This document shows, in pieces, positions 3,983-32,456 of a stretch of DNA of 42,652 bases. Position numbers and translations under genes: made by a program. The notes beneath the pieces were generated by a model. That model searched no databases. It saw only the letters and a list, made by a program, of their open reading frames with translations, and was not told where the DNA came from. The DNA is from a virus (Duplodnaviria; Caudoviricetes), in the IMG/VR virus record IMGVR_UViG_3300047440_000108, positions 1 to 42,652 of that record, one strand, 5' to 3'. Every line of letters begins with the position of its first letter. Position 1 is the stretch's first letter.

Positions 3983-4591
3983 ATGTCAGCAGTGCTTGAG
4001 CCCAGACCTAAATACAACGCAGTCAATCGCGTGGTCGCCACAGACCCCGAGGTTATCGCTCAAGCTGAGCACGCAATTTCGTGCATCGAAGAGGGCGATT
4101 TGCTGAAACATGCACTAGGAAAGGCCGGAATTGGCCGTGCAATGTTCAGCGCAGTGCTTGCAGGACAGCGAGAATTGGCTGCTCGTGTCGCGCGTGCTCA
4201 AGAAATCAGCGCTGACTTCTTGGTTGACGAGGCAATCGACGCTGCGCGCAACGAGCCAGACGTGATGCGCGCTCGTGTGATCGCTGAAAACAATCGCTGG
4301 GCAGCGAGCAGGCGCAACAGCAAGAAGTATGGCGATCGCATCGACCTCAACGTGACGCAGACGCTGGACATCAGCGGCACGCTGTTGGAAGCAAAGCAGC
4401 GCATGCTGCGTCCAATGCGCGACCAGCTGGACGTGACTGACGTGCAAACGCTTGATTTGCCTAGCGTTGCGCTGCTTGGAGCACAAGATAGTCAATCAAT
4501 GACTCCGATTGAGCCTGACATATTCGCAGCGCCTGAGCCCGTGAAGGTTGAGGCAGCACCGGTGAGCGATGAGCCTTCGATCTTCGATTGA
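3983..4591 (+). CDS. terS: Terminase small subunit
   Basis: Sf6/P22-like pattern ARAQEISADFLVDEAIDAA...NRWAASRRNSKKYGDR; upstream of terL. Confidence 0.8.
   Translation: MSAVLEPRPKYNAVNRVVATDPEVIAQAEHAISCIEEGDLLKHALGKAGIGRAMFSAVLAGQRELAARVARAQEISADFLVDEAIDAARNEPDVMRARVIAENNRWAASRRNSKKYGDRIDLNVTQTLDISGTLLEAKQRMLRPMRDQLDVTDVQTLDLPSVALLGAQDSQSMTPIEPDIFAAPEPVKVEAAPVSDEPSIFD
4405..4427 (+). repeat. Dispersed 20-22 bp motif, copy inside terS
   Basis: TGCGTCCAATGCGCGACCAGC (4407-4427) is the exact reverse complement of 31215-31235; 4405-4426 matches 31403-31424 at 21/22. Confidence 0.9.
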
Positions 4592-4770
4592 AGTGAAAGG
4601 GGTCCCACGTCACGAGGGGGTGCCCCCATGCCGGGTGGGGTCGGCGAATGGGCCGCGAGCGCGACTGCGGGGGACCCGTTTGGCAACCGCCGAGCGGTTT
4701 TGCTGAAATTTTTCGGTTGCTTAAAACGAAAGCTGTTACGATTCCCGCAATCAAACCTTTCACGTGAAAC
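4592..4770. other. Probable packaging/terminus region with tandem operator-like sites (4716-4732, 4735-4751)
   Basis: G-run-rich non-coding stretch followed by AAATTTTT between terS and HNH/terL; GTTACGATTCCCGCAAT matches the operator consensus. Confidence 0.4.
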
Positions 4771-5370
4771 ATGCTGCGGACGAAAAAGTGTTCTGACTGC
4801 GCTTGCCACCTACCGCTGTCTGAGTTCAGCCCTCGCGCAGACGGCTGCGGGGACGGCTACCGATCCAACTGCAAGTTCTGCAAGCGCATCCAGTTAGCGT
4901 TCTGGAAGGCGGCCAACCCCGAGAAGGTGAAGGCGAACAAAGCGCGTCACCGAGCAGGCCAGTTTCAACGAGATCCCGAGCACGTTCGTTCGCTGCGGCG
5001 GACGGTGAAGACACGTGGCAGGGCCAAGCTAAGGCAGACCGCGCCGGAACGCCTGACTGAGGCTAGGCGTCTCGAAAGACTGCGCGCCAAGGAGCGGGAC
5101 CCGGTAGCGTGGGCGGCTGCAAAGCGTTTGCAGAAGCTGGCTCGTGAGGAGTTCATCAAGCAAGCCACACCGGCATGGGCGGACTTCGATGCGATGCGTG
5201 TGTTCTACGAACGGGCGAGGACGTTGAGTGATCGGGGTGAGCCCCACCACGTCGACCACATTGTCCCGTTGAAGGGTGAACGTGTATGCGGCCTGCACGT
5301 TCACACGAACCTACAGGTGCTGCCGGCCCGGGCCAACATCCTCAAGAGCAACAAGTACCATGCCAGCTAG
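4771..5370 (+). CDS. HNH endonuclease with N-terminal zinc ribbon
   Basis: CSDC...CKFC; TPAWAD...HHVDHIVPLKGERVCGLHVHTNLQVL...NILKSN. Confidence 0.9.
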   Translation: MLRTKKCSDCACHLPLSEFSPRADGCGDGYRSNCKFCKRIQLAFWKAANPEKVKANKARHRAGQFQRDPEHVRSLRRTVKTRGRAKLRQTAPERLTEARRLERLRAKERDPVAWAAAKRLQKLAREEFIKQATPAWADFDAMRVFYERARTLSDRGEPHHVDHIVPLKGERVCGLHVHTNLQVLPARANILKSNKYHAS

Positions 5371-6922
5371 CCAACCCATCTACTCCACAGCTGGCGAACA
5401 AGCCCTGATGCTGGAGCTCTGGGATCCCCGCCTGGCCGACAACCCCCAGGATTTCGTCCGCTTCGTCTACCCCTGGGGCAAGGCCGGCACGCCGTTGGAG
5501 CACCTCACCGGCCCGCGCAACTGGCAGGACAAGCAGCTCAAGGACATCGCCCAATACATCCGTGAAGCCCGCACCCAGCATCAGATCACCAAGATCATCC
5601 CCACCATGTACCGCGAAGCCATCGCTTCCGGCCGCGGCATCGGCAAGTCGGCCTTCTTCGCGATGATCGCCCACTGGCTGATGTCCACGCGGATTGGTTC
5701 TTCTACCTGGGTCACAGCCAACGGCGAGCCCCAGCTCAAGACCAAAACCTTCCCCGAGATCGCCAAGTGGATCACACTCAGCATCAACAGCCACTGGTTC
5801 GATGTCTCGGCGACTAAGATCGAGCCTGCCGGGTGGTTGAAGGAAGCGGTGCAGCGGGATCTGAAGATCGACCCGAAGTACTGGTACATCGCAGCCCAGC
5901 TGTGGTCCGAGGAAAATCCTGATGCCTTCGCCGGCGCGCACAACGTCTACGGCGAGATGTACCTGTTCGACGAAGCATCGGGTATACCCTCCCCGATCTG
6001 GACCGTGGCCCAGGGCGTCTTCACCGAGCAGATCATCGACCGCTACTGGCTGGCGTTCTCCAACCCCCGACGTAACAGCGGAGCCTTCTTCGAGTGCTTC
6101 CACAAGGCCCGCGACCAGTGGCGCACCCGCCAGATCGATGCCAGAACGGTAGAGGGCCTGGCCCAGGATGCCTATGACGCGATCGTCAAGAAGCACGGCG
6201 CGGACTCGGACGAAGCCAAGATCGAGGTCTACGGCCAGTTCCCCTCCAGCGGCACCAACCAGTTCATCCCCAAGGATCACGTCCTTCAGGCCGGCGAGCG
6301 CGAGGCGATCCCCGATCCGGGGGCTCCTCTCCTAATGGGGGTGGACGTGGCCCGCTTCGGCAAGGACTCATCCGTCATCGCGTTCCGCAAGGGCCGCGAC
6401 GCAGCCAGCATCCCATGGCAGGTCTACCGCGGGCTCGACACGGTGCAGCTCGCCACCCGGGTGGCCGATGCCATCTCTAAGTACAAGGTCGACGCCGTGT
6501 TCGTCGATGGCAACGGTGTCGGCGGCGGCGTGGTCGACAATCTCAAGGCCTGGGGCCACCGCGTGATCGAGGTGCAGGCCGGTAGCTCACCGAGTGACCC
6601 AGACAAGTACCAGAACAAGCGGGTGGAGATGTGGGCCCGGATGAAGGAGTGGCTGACGATCGGGACGATCCCCAGAACAGCCGACCTGCTCAACGACCTG
6701 ATCGGCCCCGAGTACTCCTACCACCCCATCACCAACAAGATGGGGTTGGAGACCAAGGAGAAGATGATGGACCGCGGGCTGGCATCCCCGAACGAAGCGG
6801 ATGCGCTGGCCATGACATTCGCCCAGACCGTGGCACGCAACGACACCCGGACTTCCAGATCGCACAGCCGCACCAGGCAGGCGACCGGGTTGGACTACGA
6901 CGTGTTGGGGTCACAACGATGA
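5360..6922 (+). CDS. terL: Terminase large subunit
   Basis: Walker A SGRGIGKS, Walker B YLFDEASG, nuclease motif MGVDVARFGKD. Confidence 0.95.
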   Translation: MPASQPIYSTAGEQALMLELWDPRLADNPQDFVRFVYPWGKAGTPLEHLTGPRNWQDKQLKDIAQYIREARTQHQITKIIPTMYREAIASGRGIGKSAFFAMIAHWLMSTRIGSSTWVTANGEPQLKTKTFPEIAKWITLSINSHWFDVSATKIEPAGWLKEAVQRDLKIDPKYWYIAAQLWSEENPDAFAGAHNVYGEMYLFDEASGIPSPIWTVAQGVFTEQIIDRYWLAFSNPRRNSGAFFECFHKARDQWRTRQIDARTVEGLAQDAYDAIVKKHGADSDEAKIEVYGQFPSSGTNQFIPKDHVLQAGEREAIPDPGAPLLMGVDVARFGKDSSVIAFRKGRDAASIPWQVYRGLDTVQLATRVADAISKYKVDAVFVDGNGVGGGVVDNLKAWGHRVIEVQAGSSPSDPDKYQNKRVEMWARMKEWLTIGTIPRTADLLNDLIGPEYSYHPITNKMGLETKEKMMDRGLASPNEADALAMTFAQTVARNDTRTSRSHSRTRQATGLDYDVLGSQR

Positions 6923-8023: not shown

Positions 8024-9739
8024 ATGACTACCTCCAACGTTGTCCAGCTTGATACGGCCCAGCGCAAGCAGGGTGACCGCGAGGCCGCGATCGTCAGCGA
8101 GGTGCTGCGCGAGTTCGGCCAGCTCGAAGGCGCGCGTGGCATCTGGGAGCAACACTGGGAGGAAGTCTCCCGCGTGGTGTTGCCCTACTACTCGACCAGC
8201 TTCAACACCCAGGGCATGGTCACGCCGGGGCAGGAACGCAGTCAGCATCAGTACGACGTGACGGCCAACCTCGCGCTGTGGAAGTTCGCGGCGGCGATGG
8301 AGAGCATGCTGACGCCAGCGAACGGCAAGTGGCACAAGCTGCGTCCGACCGACAAGGCGCTGATGAAGGACAGGGAAACGGCCTTGTGGTTCGAGCAGGT
8401 CAACGACCTGATGTTCCGCTACCGCTACGCCGCGCATTCGGGGTACCAGGCGCAGCAGCACGACGCCTATGTGAGCATCGGCGCTTTCGGCACCGGCTGC
8501 CTGTTCACCGACGAGTACAAGGACCCGACCCGTCCTCAGACCAAGGGTTTGCGCTACCGCAACATCCACCTCGGTGAGCTGTTCTTCGCCACCAACTTCC
8601 AGGGCCAGGTCGACAAGGTCTACCGTCGGTTCAAGATGACACTGAGGCAAGTCGCCCAGAAGTGGGGCGAGCAGGTCCTTGGCGACAAGTACCGCGGTCA
8701 GCTGAAGGAAAAGCCCGAGACCGAGATCGTCGTCATCCACTGCGTCAAGCCCAACACCGAGTTCGACCCGCGGCGGATGGACCAGAAGGGCAAGCGCTTC
8801 CTCAGCTACTACGTGCTGAAAGAGACCCAGACGCTGGCGCACTCGGGTGGCTACCGCTGCTTCCCCTACAGCGTGGCGCGTTACCTCACGGCGCCCGGCG
8901 AACTGTGGGGCCGCGGCCCGGCCATGAATGTGCTGCCCGGCATCCGGGTGCTTAACGAGGAAAAGAAGACCATCCTCAAGCAGGGTCACCGTGTGGTGGA
9001 CCCAGTGTTGCTGGCGCACGACGACGGCATCCTGGAAGGGTTTTCCCTCAAGCCGGGCGCGGTCAACTACGGCGGCGTCAACTCCCAGGGCCAGCGGCTG
9101 GTGCAGACGCTTGAGACCGGCAACATCGCCATCGGCAAGGAGCTGATGGACGACGAGCGGTTGGCGATCAACGACTCGTTCCTGGTCACCCTGTTCCAGA
9201 TCCTGATCGACACGCCGCAGATGACGGCGACCGAAGTGCTTGAGCGTGCGCGCGAGAAGGGCGCCCTCCTGTCTCCCACCATGGGCCGGTACCAGTCGGA
9301 GGGCATCGGCCCCACCATCGAGCGCGAGTTCGACCTGCTGATGTACCAGGGGCTGCTGCCCAAACCGCCGCGTGCGCTGATGGAAGCTGGTGGGGAATAC
9401 CAGGTCGAGTACGACGCGCCGCTGAACCGCGCGATGCGTTCGGAGGAAGCGGCTGGCGGCATGCGCACCTTCCAGTGGGCGTCCGAGATCGCGGCCCAAA
9501 CCCAGGACCCGTCCGTGCTCGACTGGTTCGACACCGACGCGATGATGCCTGAGCTTGCTGACATCAACGGCATGCCGTTGCGTTGGATCCGCGGCCAGGA
9601 AGACGTCGATGCGATCCGCGAGGATCGTCAGACACAACAGGCTACGGCGCAGGTCACCCAGGCTCTGCCGGGGATGGCCGCAATGCTCAAGGCCAGCGCG
9701 CCTGAAGGCACCAGCGCCAGCCAGGGGCAACCGGCATGA
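8024..9739 (+). CDS. Portal (head-to-tail connector)
   Basis: T7/BPP-1-type motifs GAFGTG, GELWGRGP, QMTATEVLERAREK. Confidence 0.95.
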   Translation: MTTSNVVQLDTAQRKQGDREAAIVSEVLREFGQLEGARGIWEQHWEEVSRVVLPYYSTSFNTQGMVTPGQERSQHQYDVTANLALWKFAAAMESMLTPANGKWHKLRPTDKALMKDRETALWFEQVNDLMFRYRYAAHSGYQAQQHDAYVSIGAFGTGCLFTDEYKDPTRPQTKGLRYRNIHLGELFFATNFQGQVDKVYRRFKMTLRQVAQKWGEQVLGDKYRGQLKEKPETEIVVIHCVKPNTEFDPRRMDQKGKRFLSYYVLKETQTLAHSGGYRCFPYSVARYLTAPGELWGRGPAMNVLPGIRVLNEEKKTILKQGHRVVDPVLLAHDDGILEGFSLKPGAVNYGGVNSQGQRLVQTLETGNIAIGKELMDDERLAINDSFLVTLFQILIDTPQMTATEVLERAREKGALLSPTMGRYQSEGIGPTIEREFDLLMYQGLLPKPPRALMEAGGEYQVEYDAPLNRAMRSEEAAGGMRTFQWASEIAAQTQDPSVLDWFDTDAMMPELADINGMPLRWIRGQEDVDAIREDRQTQQATAQVTQALPGMAAMLKASAPEGTSASQGQPA

Positions 9740-29047: not shown

Positions 29048-29854
29048 ATGCAAACCGTTCCCCGTACCCTACTCGCCGACACCACCGGTGACATCGCCGC
29101 TGCCGTCACAGCCGCCTTCCGCGGCCACATCTCCGGCCTGACGCTCTCGGCAGCGGGTGGCACCAACACCTGGGGCATCGCGGCGGGCGCGGCCGTCAAC
29201 AGCACCGCGACTGATGCGCTGTCGCTGCCCAGCGCGCTCTCCAAGAACGGCGGCGTGGCTTGGGGCGTCGGCACCGCCAACGGGTCACTTGACACCGGCG
29301 CGCTGGCAGCCAACACCTGGTATCACGCCTTCGTCATCAAGCGCCTGGACACCGGTGTGGTCGACGCGCTGATCTCGCTATCGGCTACGGCGCCGACGCT
29401 ACCGACCGGCTACACCGTGTTCCGCCGCGTCGGCTCGATGCGAACCAACGGCTCGGCGCAGTGGTACAAGTTCGTACAGATCGGCGACACGTTCATGCTG
29501 GACAGCCCGGTGCTCGACGCCAGCGCCGTGAACGCGGGCGCGGGCCTGACGGTGACCCTGACCGTCCCGAACGGCGTGCCCGTGGAGGCCGTCTTCCACA
29601 TGGCGCTGAACTCGACGGTGGTCGGGGCTTTCCTTACCGTTCATTCACCGCTCGTGGCTGCGCAGACCGTCGGCGTGCCGACCACCAACTACCAGATCGT
29701 CAACCCGCTCGCGGGGCAGACCGATCCGTCGTCGATCATGCGGCTGCCGACGATCACCGGGGCGCTGCGCCTGGTCAGCGGCACGCCCGGTGGCGGCACG
29801 CAGCAGGCGTACCTCGTCACCCACGGCTGGATCGACACCCGCGGCAAAGACTAA
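29048..29854 (+). CDS. Tail-fiber-like protein (second receptor-binding candidate)
   Basis: ISGLTLS...GSLDTGALAANTWYH...SATAPTLPTGYT..RRVGS pattern of phage fiber domains. Confidence 0.7.
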   Translation: MQTVPRTLLADTTGDIAAAVTAAFRGHISGLTLSAAGGTNTWGIAAGAAVNSTATDALSLPSALSKNGGVAWGVGTANGSLDTGALAANTWYHAFVIKRLDTGVVDALISLSATAPTLPTGYTVFRRVGSMRTNGSAQWYKFVQIGDTFMLDSPVLDASAVNAGAGLTVTLTVPNGVPVEAVFHMALNSTVVGAFLTVHSPLVAAQTVGVPTTNYQIVNPLAGQTDPSSIMRLPTITGALRLVSGTPGGGTQQAYLVTHGWIDTRGKD

Positions 29855-30963
29855 CCCAGCATCTTCTCGGCCACCAACCCAGCGGCATTGGTGGCGGTGT
29901 CCTCCATCAGCCAGGCGTAGACCTTGGTGGTCTGCGCGCTGGTGTGGCCGAGCATCTGCATCACCTGCTCGAGCGACAGCTGGCCGGTGGAGAGCGCCAC
30001 GCTGGCGAAGGTCCGTCTGAGATCGTGCATGGTCAGGTCGGGCAGGTTCTCTTCCTCACACACCCGGGCCCAGAACTTCTTCGGTGACAGCAGCCCGGTC
30101 AGCGTGCCTGACGTGACCGGCAGGTACTTGTCGATCACCTCGCGCGCTGCCGGCGGCAGGTAGATGATCCGCGCGTAGCCACCGTCATCGGTCTTGTGCT
30201 CGTCCAGCAGGATGCGGTTGCCATGTAAGTTGTTCCACTTTGCTGCGGCGATCTCCCCCTTGCGCGCACCGGTGAACAGCAACAGCCACACGAAGGTGGC
30301 GCTGGCCACGCTCGGCCCATCCAGCTCCTTGCGCAGCCGCGCCACGATGCGCGCCACTTCCTCGCGGCTGGCCTTGCGCCGGCGCTTGGTCTCCTTGTTG
30401 CGCTCGACCCCCTTGCACGGGTTGTCGGCCACGGCTGTCCACTTCAGCGGACGGTGGGCGAAGTTGAACATGGTCGAGGCGAGCGCCAGCGCGCGGTTGG
30501 CGGCGATGGGGCCGTCCTCGCTGATGGCTTCGTGCAGATCGCCCATCACCTCGTAGGTCACCTCGGACAGCCGCAGCTTGCCGATCGCTGGGGCCAGGTG
30601 GTTGGTCCAGTTCCGCTGGTCGCTGTCCGAGGATTTCTTCTTGCTGGCGCGGCGCTTCCAGAACTCGGCCCACAGCTCGGCCACGGTCGGCTCGTTTCGG
30701 GCGTCAGACCGCACCAACTGGGGGTCCTTGCCGGCGGCCACGTCCTGCAGCATGGCCTTGGCCACGGTGCGCGCCTGGGTCAGCGTGAGCTGGCCGTAGT
30801 TGCCGATCTTGGGCCGGCGCTGCTTGCCGCCCTTGGTCCTGAAGAACAGGTAGAACACCTTCTTGGTGGGGAAGCAGCGCAGGTGCAGCCCGTGGATCTC
30901 GGCGTCCCGCAGGATGTCGCCGTTGACGGCCGACTTGATGTTGGCTTCTTTGAGTTCAGCCAC
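29851..30963 (-). CDS. int: Tyrosine integrase with N-terminal arm-binding domain
   Basis: FTGARKGEI, HDLRRT, LGH...Y; N-terminal GLHLRC...KIGNYGQLTLTQAR; GGAGGA SD before GTG 30963. Confidence 0.95.
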   Translation of the reverse strand: MAELKEANIKSAVNGDILRDAEIHGLHLRCFPTKKVFYLFFRTKGGKQRRPKIGNYGQLTLTQARTVAKAMLQDVAAGKDPQLVRSDARNEPTVAELWAEFWKRRASKKKSSDSDQRNWTNHLAPAIGKLRLSEVTYEVMGDLHEAISEDGPIAANRALALASTMFNFAHRPLKWTAVADNPCKGVERNKETKRRRKASREEVARIVARLRKELDGPSVASATFVWLLLFTGARKGEIAAAKWNNLHGNRILLDEHKTDDGGYARIIYLPPAAREVIDKYLPVTSGTLTGLLSPKKFWARVCEEENLPDLTMHDLRRTFASVALSTGQLSLEQVMQMLGHTSAQTTKVYAWLMEDTATNAAGLVAEKMLG

Positions 30964-31252
30964 GGCGCTGTTCCTCCGTGAGGCCCGCCCACCAGCGGCG
31001 AAACTCAACCGGGTCGTACCAGTGGTTTGCGTGGACCCTGTTACCACTAGAGTGGTTCAGCTTCGCAGTCGGCCCTTTGTAGTGCATGAGCTTGGCGCTC
31101 ATGACCCTGGGGGGTACACCTAACTCTTCGCACATCTCTCTGAACGATCGACACGGCGGCCGAGCCACCTTGCGCGGACCGGGCTTGAACCCGTAGGTGG
31201 CCTTCGTAACGAGCGCTGGTCGCGCATTGGACGCACTCGAACTTGATTTCAC
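30956..31252 (-). CDS. Excisionase-like HTH protein
   Basis: SFREMCEELGV...WYDPVEFRRWW; overlaps the int start. Confidence 0.55.
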   Translation of the reverse strand: MKSSSSASNARPALVTKATYGFKPGPRKVARPPCRSFREMCEELGVPPRVMSAKLMHYKGPTAKLNHSSGNRVHANHWYDPVEFRRWWAGLTEEQRRG

Positions 31253-31424
31253 GTGATGCCCCTTGTCTATAAGTTACTGAAAACGTTACAGACGTGATGC
31301 TACATGAACCCCCGTGATCTTGTCAAATAAGACTTTTAAACAGGAGGGCTATCGCCGGGAAGCCCAGTGTTTACAAGGGTTTAAGCCGAGTACGGAGATT
31401 CACTGGTCGCACATTGGACGCAGC
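31215..31424. mobile_element. Putative attP: arm-like direct repeats (31216-31235, 31403-31422) flanking core GACTTTTAA (31331-31339)
   Basis: CTGGTCGC(G/A)CATTGGACGCA twice (19/20 identical); core equals a tRNA-Lys(UUU) anticodon loop; AT-rich; adjacent to int. Confidence 0.65.
31273..31326 (-). promoter_or_regulatory. xis/int promoter with downstream operator-like site (31273-31289)
   Basis: TTGACA-18 nt-TAGCAT; GTTACTGAAAACGTTAC. Confidence 0.65.
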
Positions 31425-31425
31425 C

Positions 31426-31500
31426 GGACCCCTAGCTCAATGGTAGAGCACAGCCCTTTTAAGGCCGAGGTTCAGGGTTCGAGTCCCTGGGGGTTCACCA
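31426..31500 (+). tRNA. tRNA-Lys(UUU)
   Basis: Cloverleaf: GGACCCC/GGGGTTC acceptor, GCTC/GAGC D-arm, CAGCC-CTTTTAA-GGCCG anticodon arm (one A:C mismatch), CAGGG-TTCGAGT-CCCTG T-arm, encoded CCA. Confidence 0.93.
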
Positions 31501-31501
31501 C

Positions 31502-32272
31502 TCACGACATCAGCCACGCCAGCTCGATTCGTTCCTTGGCGACTGCGAAGTAGCCGGCGTCCTGCTCCATGCCGATGAACTTGCGGCCGGTGCTGGCGCA
31601 TGCCACCCCGGTGGTGCCGCTGCCCATCGTGTTGTCGAGCACCGTGTCGCCTTCGCCGGTGTAGGTCCGTACCAGGTATTCCATGAGCGCCACTGGCTTC
31701 TGCGTAGGGTGCAGAACTTCACTGTTCGGGTTGGGGAAGTCGAGCACCTGGCGCGGGTATCCGGTCTTCTCTATCACCCGACTTAGCTGGTGGGACGCCC
31801 GCGCAGGGTTCACGCCCTTGTCGCCGGTCAGGTATCTCTGGGGTCTGCTCCACGCGGTGTTGCAGTCTTCCAGCCCTTGAGGAAAGTAAGGCATGTTCTT
31901 CTGCGAGCCGTTCGCGGTGGCCCCGCTGCTGAACACAGTGATCGTTTCAACGTCTTTAAGAGGCTTCAGCTTCGCGTTGGTGAAGCCCGCCGGCCGTGAC
32001 TTTCTCCAGTACCAATCGTACTTGTACCAAGCCAAATTGGAGAGCCGCAGATTGGACGCGAACGGCTCGTCCCCGAACAGGACGACCGCGCCGTTCGGTT
32101 TGACGACACGTTTGTACTGCGCCCACAAAGCGTCAAACGGGATGACGGAATCCCACTTACACGCGGTTGTGCCATATGGTAGATCGCACAGCACCAGATC
32201 GACGCTGGCAGCCGGTAGGTCGCGCATCAACCTAAGGCAGTCGCCTTGGTAAAGCTGCAGGTCATCGGTCAT
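31502..32272 (-). CDS. Orphan N4/N6 DNA methyltransferase (beta class)
   Basis: DLPY, HPTQKP, VLDNTMGSGTTG. Confidence 0.93.
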   Translation of the reverse strand: MTDDLQLYQGDCLRLMRDLPAASVDLVLCDLPYGTTACKWDSVIPFDALWAQYKRVVKPNGAVVLFGDEPFASNLRLSNLAWYKYDWYWRKSRPAGFTNAKLKPLKDVETITVFSSGATANGSQKNMPYFPQGLEDCNTAWSRPQRYLTGDKGVNPARASHQLSRVIEKTGYPRQVLDFPNPNSEVLHPTQKPVALMEYLVRTYTGEGDTVLDNTMGSGTTGVACASTGRKFIGMEQDAGYFAVAKERIELAWLMS

Positions 32273-32456
32273 ACGTTCCTTGTGTCGTATTCGTTCTCAA
32301 ACACCGATCCTCAAACGCCTCGATCTCGCGCTCGGGGTACAGTACCCGCCGGCCGAACTTCATGAACCGCGGCCCCTCCCCGGCCACCCGCCAGTTGGCG
32401 AGCGTTCCGGTGGAGACGCGCAGGCGATCGGCGGCTTCTTTGGGCAGGAGGTTCAT
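32262..32456 (-). CDS. AlpA/Xis-like HTH protein
   Basis: LLPKEAADRLRVSTGTLANWR..GEGPRFMKFGRRVLY. Confidence 0.88.
   Translation of the reverse strand: MNLLPKEAADRLRVSTGTLANWRVAGEGPRFMKFGRRVLYPEREIEAFEDRCLRTNTTQGTYDR

Follow-up and report, generated by a model that had tools for sequence, protein, structure and literature searches.

The window (the whole stretch of DNA analysed here, 42,652 nt) is IMG/VR record IMGVR_UViG_3300047440_000108, a complete circular record with a 124-nt terminal overlap; by gene content it is a temperate podophage, and its nearest cultured relatives are the Ralstonia phages C22, DU_RP_II and RpY1. Genes are arranged in the order cI, terS, an HNH gene, terL and the genes for structure and lysis, followed by int, attP, a tRNA gene, a methylase gene, xis and a primase/polymerase operon on the opposite strand. 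The terS gene (3983–4591, + strand) codes for an Sf6-like small terminase, an assignment that had been made in the original prediction and is supported here by matches to PF20901 and phrog_1482; its variable C-terminal tail holds the putative integrase half-site considered below. A G/C-rich tract 3′ of terS (4615–4641, +) is the presumed packaging-initiation region. An HNH/endonuclease VII-like gene (4771–5370) is inserted between terS and terL (5276–6922, +). The tyrosine integrase gene int (29851–30963, − strand) has an N-terminal Arm-DNA-bind_3 domain (PF13356), with the catalytic R, HxxR, H and Y all present; xis (32262–32456, −) is an excisionase-like HTH gene. Between attP and int there is a small ORF (30956–31135, −) that runs into the beginning of int; genome G011, which has no attP, also has such an ORF ahead of int.

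Positions 4407–4427, inside terS, are the reverse complement of positions 31215–31235 at 21/21 bases, and positions 4405–4426 match 31403–31424 at 21 of 22, just as first noted. The 21-mer is the longest exact repeat of the window genome, followed by an 18-bp self-palindrome and then by 17-bp pairs; three copies of the 20-mer are found with four mismatches or fewer, while the next best has five. A match by chance had been called very unlikely, and indeed in 60 genomes simulated with an order-5 Markov model the longest repeat was of 15–20 bp and never reached 21 bp. The internal tandem structure (GCGTCCA/GCGACCA, 11-bp period) is also real. All three copies are in sense orientation to their local genes, as a promoter or an RNA motif might be; this candidate was rejected when the copies proved to flank tRNA cores.

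In the window, attP consists of an int-side arm site (31215–31235, −), a core TAAGA-CTTTTAA-ACAGG (31328–31344; hyphens set off the central 7 bp here and below), an IHF-like site (31371–31383, −) and a xis-side arm site (31402–31422, −). Measured from the xis-side arm, the IHF-like site is at +39 and the core at +83; in other genomes these distances are longer, in steps of ∼11 bp. The overlap (31333–31339) corresponds to the anticodon loop of tRNA-Lys(UUU). The same tandem is found on either side of a core from a tRNA anticodon loop, located between xis and int, in C22, DU_RP_II and many relatives from metagenomes; the original view of the motif as an attP arm site thus stands.

The window attP lacks the tRNA 3′ half that relatives carry, its core being just the 9-bp GACTTTTAA. 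A complete phage tRNA-Lys(UUU) gene (31426–31500, +) sits after the xis-side arm; its anticodon stem differs from the attP core arms (region 31328–31500). This tRNA likely replaces the host tRNA split by integration, and, judged by sequence, the window attP fits as a candidate for tRNA-dependent lysogeny outside Actinobacteria. As described by Guerrero-Bustamante and Hatfull (2024; PMC10865867), that system also has a short (∼9 bp) attP core in the anticodon loop of tRNA-Lys(UUU), does not rebuild the tRNA and has a phage tRNA of the same isotype adjoining attP; however, it is known from actinobacteriophages, whereas here we deal with podophages, those in culture being phages of Ralstonia. The arrangement is one of attP and is a matter separate from the terS site; of the 47 records, the window alone has a phage tRNA beside attP and exhibits this arrangement.

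Several observations on attP sites were made along the way. Within the one integrase family, the attP cores come from the anticodon loops of various tRNAs, including Lys-UUU, Lys-CUU, Asn and Thr; G010 apparently has a non-tRNA target, with core ATCTCA-TTCAGTT-TCATAC, whose left arm is copied by the terS core. In G008 (∼18720) attP has neither xis-side arm nor tRNA half, and the xis stop codon abuts the core. Extra arm-type sites are located 0.7–1.1 kb upstream of attP in G013 (17346), G014 (20631) and G034 (22047), three genomes where xis was not found; those of G013 and G014 directly precede a ribosome-binding site and are possibly Int-controlled operators. Contig G006:C188 carries a tRNA-Ile gene with an unusual AAT anticodon (9210–9282; ARAGORN).

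Sequence comparison showed that the 3′-end of terS encodes a complete attL-like half-site: an arm pair, an IHF-like site and a core whose two arms enclose a 7-bp spacer. On the + strand of the window, with the arm tandem (4407–4427) at offset 0, the IHF-like site (4445–4457) is found at +38 and the core-type element CAAGA-TAGTCAA-TCAAT (4484–4500) has its spacer (4489–4495) at +82; the last two, the second of them a palindrome, had been overlooked in the original prediction. The IHF-like site is the sole exact match in the genome to the IHF consensus. In aligned terS DNA of relatives the three parts keep fixed distances with no indels. The mean complementarity across a 7-bp spacer is 0.91 at +82 (28 sites) versus at most 0.44 at other offsets. 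The arm is present in 52 of 72 distinct terS loci (scored with a matrix trained partly on these same sites), and 50 of these 52 have at least three of five core pairs at +82. Most relatives have a near-perfect inverted repeat, while the window core is imperfect (2/5 pairs); on average terS cores are more symmetric than attP cores (4.2 versus 2.95 of 5 pairs). Most genomes have the IHF-like site at +38, with a weak match (≤5/9) in several relatives. The spacer is exactly 7 bp long and is kept within lineages.

Third codon positions are invariant across the element while the encoded residues vary (R/L, P/S/L, S/C/R, D/Y/F); in three genomes (G004, G008 and G034) stop codons fall inside the spacer. 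Thus, the constraint acts on DNA rather than on protein.

In order and orientation, the terS site repeats the xis-side half of attP, i.e. an attL. Such an attL is seen directly at the prophage junction of G061, where arm, IHF-like site, tRNA half and the core ACGGA-TTAAGAG-TCCGC are followed by host DNA; the terS core of the same genome is GCGGA-TATTGAA-TCCGT. A lambda-type attL is likewise built from a single arm pair, a single IHF site and a core whose overlap measures 7 bp, and pairs of such sites recombine through heterobivalent Int without need of Xis (the ‘bent-L’ pathway). Unlike an attL, the terS element is a permanent third site within a coding sequence, and its spacer is unlike that of attP.

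The co-variation of the terS motif with attP arms that the original prediction led one to look for was found across relatives. Similarity of the terS arms to the arms of the phage’s own attP was 15.4/17, as compared with 12.7 ± 0.37 for shuffled pairs (n = 21; reached in 0 of 20 000 shuffles); for core arms the values were 4.3/5 and 3.0 ± 0.15 (n = 20; again 0 of 20 000). Both results persisted with non-redundant genomes (17 and 16, respectively). With Int, TerS and TerL tree distances removed, the partial Mantel correlation was 0.83 (0 of 5000 permutations, n = 19). The own attP was a better match than the attP of the nearest TerL neighbour in 16 of 20 genomes, worse in two and tied in two. 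Matched arms include GCTTCCA in G002, GCTACCA in G007 and GCGACCCA in G021, G035 and G065; matched core arms include ACTGG in G005, CTAGG in G042 and CTCA in G010, the phage with the non-tRNA target. Counts exclude two near-duplicates (G030, G061), four records with one attP arm or none (G008, G031, G036, G041), the non-coding copy of G044 and three unrelated genomes (G015, G016, G025). G010 was outside the core test, its core having been located later (it matches as well), and the window was outside the Mantel test; three attP cores and the arms of G047 were set by hand.

The spacer behaves differently: in all 20 genomes it is identical to the overlap of the own attP at only two to five of seven bases. 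The terS site is, therefore, not an attL of the prophage. Nor did inversion by recombination of the terS site with attP survive as a candidate, since the two spacers differ in every one of the 20 genomes and the genes have the same orientation throughout. Overlap mismatches are strongly deleterious to recombination, according to PMC10865867; with a spacer unlike the attP overlap, the terS site would thus be insulated from integration and excision.

We consider it very probable that Int and IHF bind the terS site. Only for Int would one expect both the arm repeats and the tRNA-stem core arms to matter; hence the binder would almost certainly be Int rather than TerS or a small RNA. The original idea of a site common to the integration and packaging regions holds in this respect, that the site is indeed shared; its versions with TerS binding or an sRNA are not supported.

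As to what Int does there, strand exchange between two copies of the terS site seems to us probable. We estimate at roughly 0.55 the probability that the terS site is an insulated second recombination site, next to where packaging is presumed to begin, with a recombination-based function comparable to Cre/loxP of phage P1. Int, likely with IHF, would join two copies of the site and in this way circularise terminally redundant incoming DNA; Int, whose gene closes the early operon, could perform this job. Alternatively, recombination between two copies would interconvert genome monomers and multimers. The differing spacer would insulate the site from attP, attL and attR throughout. Circularisation is a tentative assignment of function, at less than even odds; a role in handling multimers appears rather doubtful.

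Cre is an enzyme of its own, which acts without accessory factors at a site of 13-bp arms and 8-bp spacer, whereas here the integrase itself would act, equipped with an arm domain (PF13356), at a site that includes an IHF-like sequence and short core arms around a spacer of 7 bp. The terS site is, therefore, not a member of the P1 system, and the comparison is one of working principle only. The likeness consists in a phage tyrosine recombinase, a single self-compatible site with an asymmetric spacer, and the jobs proposed: in P1, packaged DNA that has a lox site at either end is made circular by Cre (PMC2841073), and Cre/loxP also resolves multimers (PMC2841073, PMC10999674).

The weakest step of the proposed mechanism is that, after a presumed pac cut in or near terS, the site would come to lie inside the terminal redundancy. 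Sf6 has its pac inside terS. In P22 as well pac is inside terS, and packaging proceeds toward the terS 3′-end (PMC8575938); if the same were true here, the terS site would sit in the terminal redundancy. These pac sites and our element have in common a DNA signal overlapping the terS coding sequence; the difference is that the signal in our case would be an integrase site, not a terminase site. On the other hand, were the initiating cut made in the G-tract, 39–159 bp past the core, with rightward packaging, the first headful would contain only one copy and circularisation would fail. Passages of PMC13452375 and PMC13197380 yielded no termini for members of the family, and the data examined here are contigs; contig breaks near the G-tract were considered as genome ends and rejected as resembling G-run dropout or graph branching. 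The window phage also has genes for an annealing protein of the Gp2.5 type and for a PD-(D/E)XK nuclease, which could provide a homology-based route to circular DNA. Counting against recombination are the 2/5 pairs of the window core, the weak IHF matches and the genomes RpY1, G046 and G044 (see below).

Mosaic breakpoints near the core hint at strand exchange, which is suggestive only. Of 30 close pairs, 26 agree at all of the inner five spacer bases, versus 11–20 of 30 for neighbouring 5-mers (the pairs are non-independent). Left and right flanks reassort near the core, between −24 and +12 in L039 and between +3 and +12 in L296. Breakpoints were located within −20 to +26 of the core in 4–5 of 10 clusters under five of six settings, a level that 0 of 841 other windows reached; this range was picked after a peak at −18 to −6 had been seen. 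At the strictest setting (k = 20) the signal was gone (152/841 windows). Intervals spanning the spacer itself came from only one to three clusters, with several breakpoints 8–18 bp to the left of it; a permissive test of the spacer alone was not significant (71/1174 windows), as was mostly the case for spacer-only tests.

The most serious competitor of the recombination reading is that Int and IHF dock at terS with no strand exchange, or with nicking only, and thereby gate or assist terminase where packaging starts or block late transcription. We regard this as possible, though less likely. Terminal redundancy is then not required, and the terS site is 39–159 bp upstream of the G-tract in all those genomes, 22 out of 28, in which the tract was detected. 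Moreover, two genomes (G038, G039) that combine this integrase and its attP with an unrelated packaging module have no third site. Against docking speak the exact, lineage-conserved 7-bp spacer with crossover scars nearby, and the higher symmetry of terS cores relative to attP cores.

Genomes that have lost one of the partners serve as natural knock-outs. G011 (43.7 kb, CheckV 100%) and the circular contig G006:C188, which are on separate branches of the Int tree, have intact Int catalytic motifs and a terS site with a 5/5 core; no second arm copy was found in them within three mismatches and no xis, and for cI there was no match in G011 and only a weak 74-aa HTH in G006. If Int were an essential packaging cofactor, its retention after the loss of attP would be explained too; however, integrases without attP have retained their catalytic residues. 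The version of docking in which a prophage is protected is inapplicable to these two phages, which have no attP; the original suggestion that Int blocks in-situ packaging before excision is weakened accordingly, and a role in recombination, absent from the original prediction, agrees better with the data.

Conversely, no PF00589 integrase and no terS site were found in G063, G066, G067 and G062, and in DSL-LC05 and MW202483 no integrase is annotated and no terS site can be seen; RpY1 is an exception, with no int found and a nearly intact terS site. In MW202898 the recombinase has no arm domain and the arm is decayed, but at the homologous place there is an 8-bp core repeat without mismatch; its genome contains six perfect repeats of this length. 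G044 has, upstream of a G-tract and with an unrelated terminase, a non-coding arm and a perfect IHF-like site (10181, −) with no clear core.

One could also think of a decoy, i.e. a sink that would tie up Int while the genome replicates and so keep re-integration low, with no significance to its location in terS. A high-quality Int site whose spacer cannot recombine with attP would suit this purpose; yet the site is retained where no attP needs protecting, and a sink needs neither exact IHF phasing nor a fixed location. We consider a decoy quite improbable.

It is very unlikely that TerS reads the tandem repeat as pac and binds the attP arms too, TerS binding to attP having been one option of the original prediction. 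The P22 precedent of PMC8575938 and an 11-bp period that could fit a TerS ring speak for it; however, phages whose terminases are unrelated (G038, G039) have the motif beside their tRNA cores as well, and the motif tracks attP with TerS distance removed. Moreover, the integrase core arms, which track the tRNA stem, are reproduced in the terS element together with a 7-bp spacer and an IHF-like site, and TerS homologs are mostly without the element where no integrase was found.

Another suggestion, of a pre-tRNA leader acting as antisense RNA to terS and xis mRNAs, we find hardly credible: the + strand of 31403–31424 is complementary to the terS sense strand, but a tRNA beside attP is found in the window alone while the terS site is family-wide, and the IHF and core parts have no counterpart in the leader. 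Equally far-fetched is the reading of the site as a coincidence or as an RPxxDQ peptide conserved in the protein: the site does lie within coding sequence with a recurring RP..DQ motif, but the varying residues, fixed third positions, internal stops and co-variation with attP already refute this reading.

Returning to the recombination reading, one could speculate that a single integrase carries out two insulated reactions, one Xis-controlled at attP and the other a Xis-independent, Cre-like circularisation at the terS site. The latter would be essential to lytic growth, and some lineages, such as MW202898, would have reduced the integrase to a Cre-like enzyme without arm domain that works at a lox-like site. 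We put this forward tentatively. If the job at the terS site were needed in lytic growth, lineages giving up lysogeny would keep the integrase. In L200–L246, G045, G046 and MW202898 (L407) we observed a relative of the integrase without arm domain and no attP arms nearby; a lox-like site in the marine clade of arm-less recombinases is represented by a single candidate, in G045, with no clear one in G046. It is possible that the arm-less relatives are a resolvase lineage.

Full-text searches, largely of open-access literature, returned no description of an integrase site in terS. The terS half-site is real and family-wide, a variant on the lambda-type att architecture, likely with a Cre-like role. 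Even if Int were only docked there, a family-wide physical link would exist between the integrase and the packaging region, one that our searches did not find in print. By its sequence, the window would extend tRNA-dependent lysogeny past actinobacteriophages.

If recombination does take place at terS, it would explain how some headful-packaging temperate phages circularise their DNA with no dedicated recombinase, and the family would offer natural orthogonal site pairs for one integrase, with >20 specificities. Two reactions of one enzyme, if true, would provide a direct evolutionary path from integrase to resolvase. Finally, an integrase gene would be no proof of a temperate lifestyle, and a deletion of int meant to yield an obligately lytic phage could cripple the phage.
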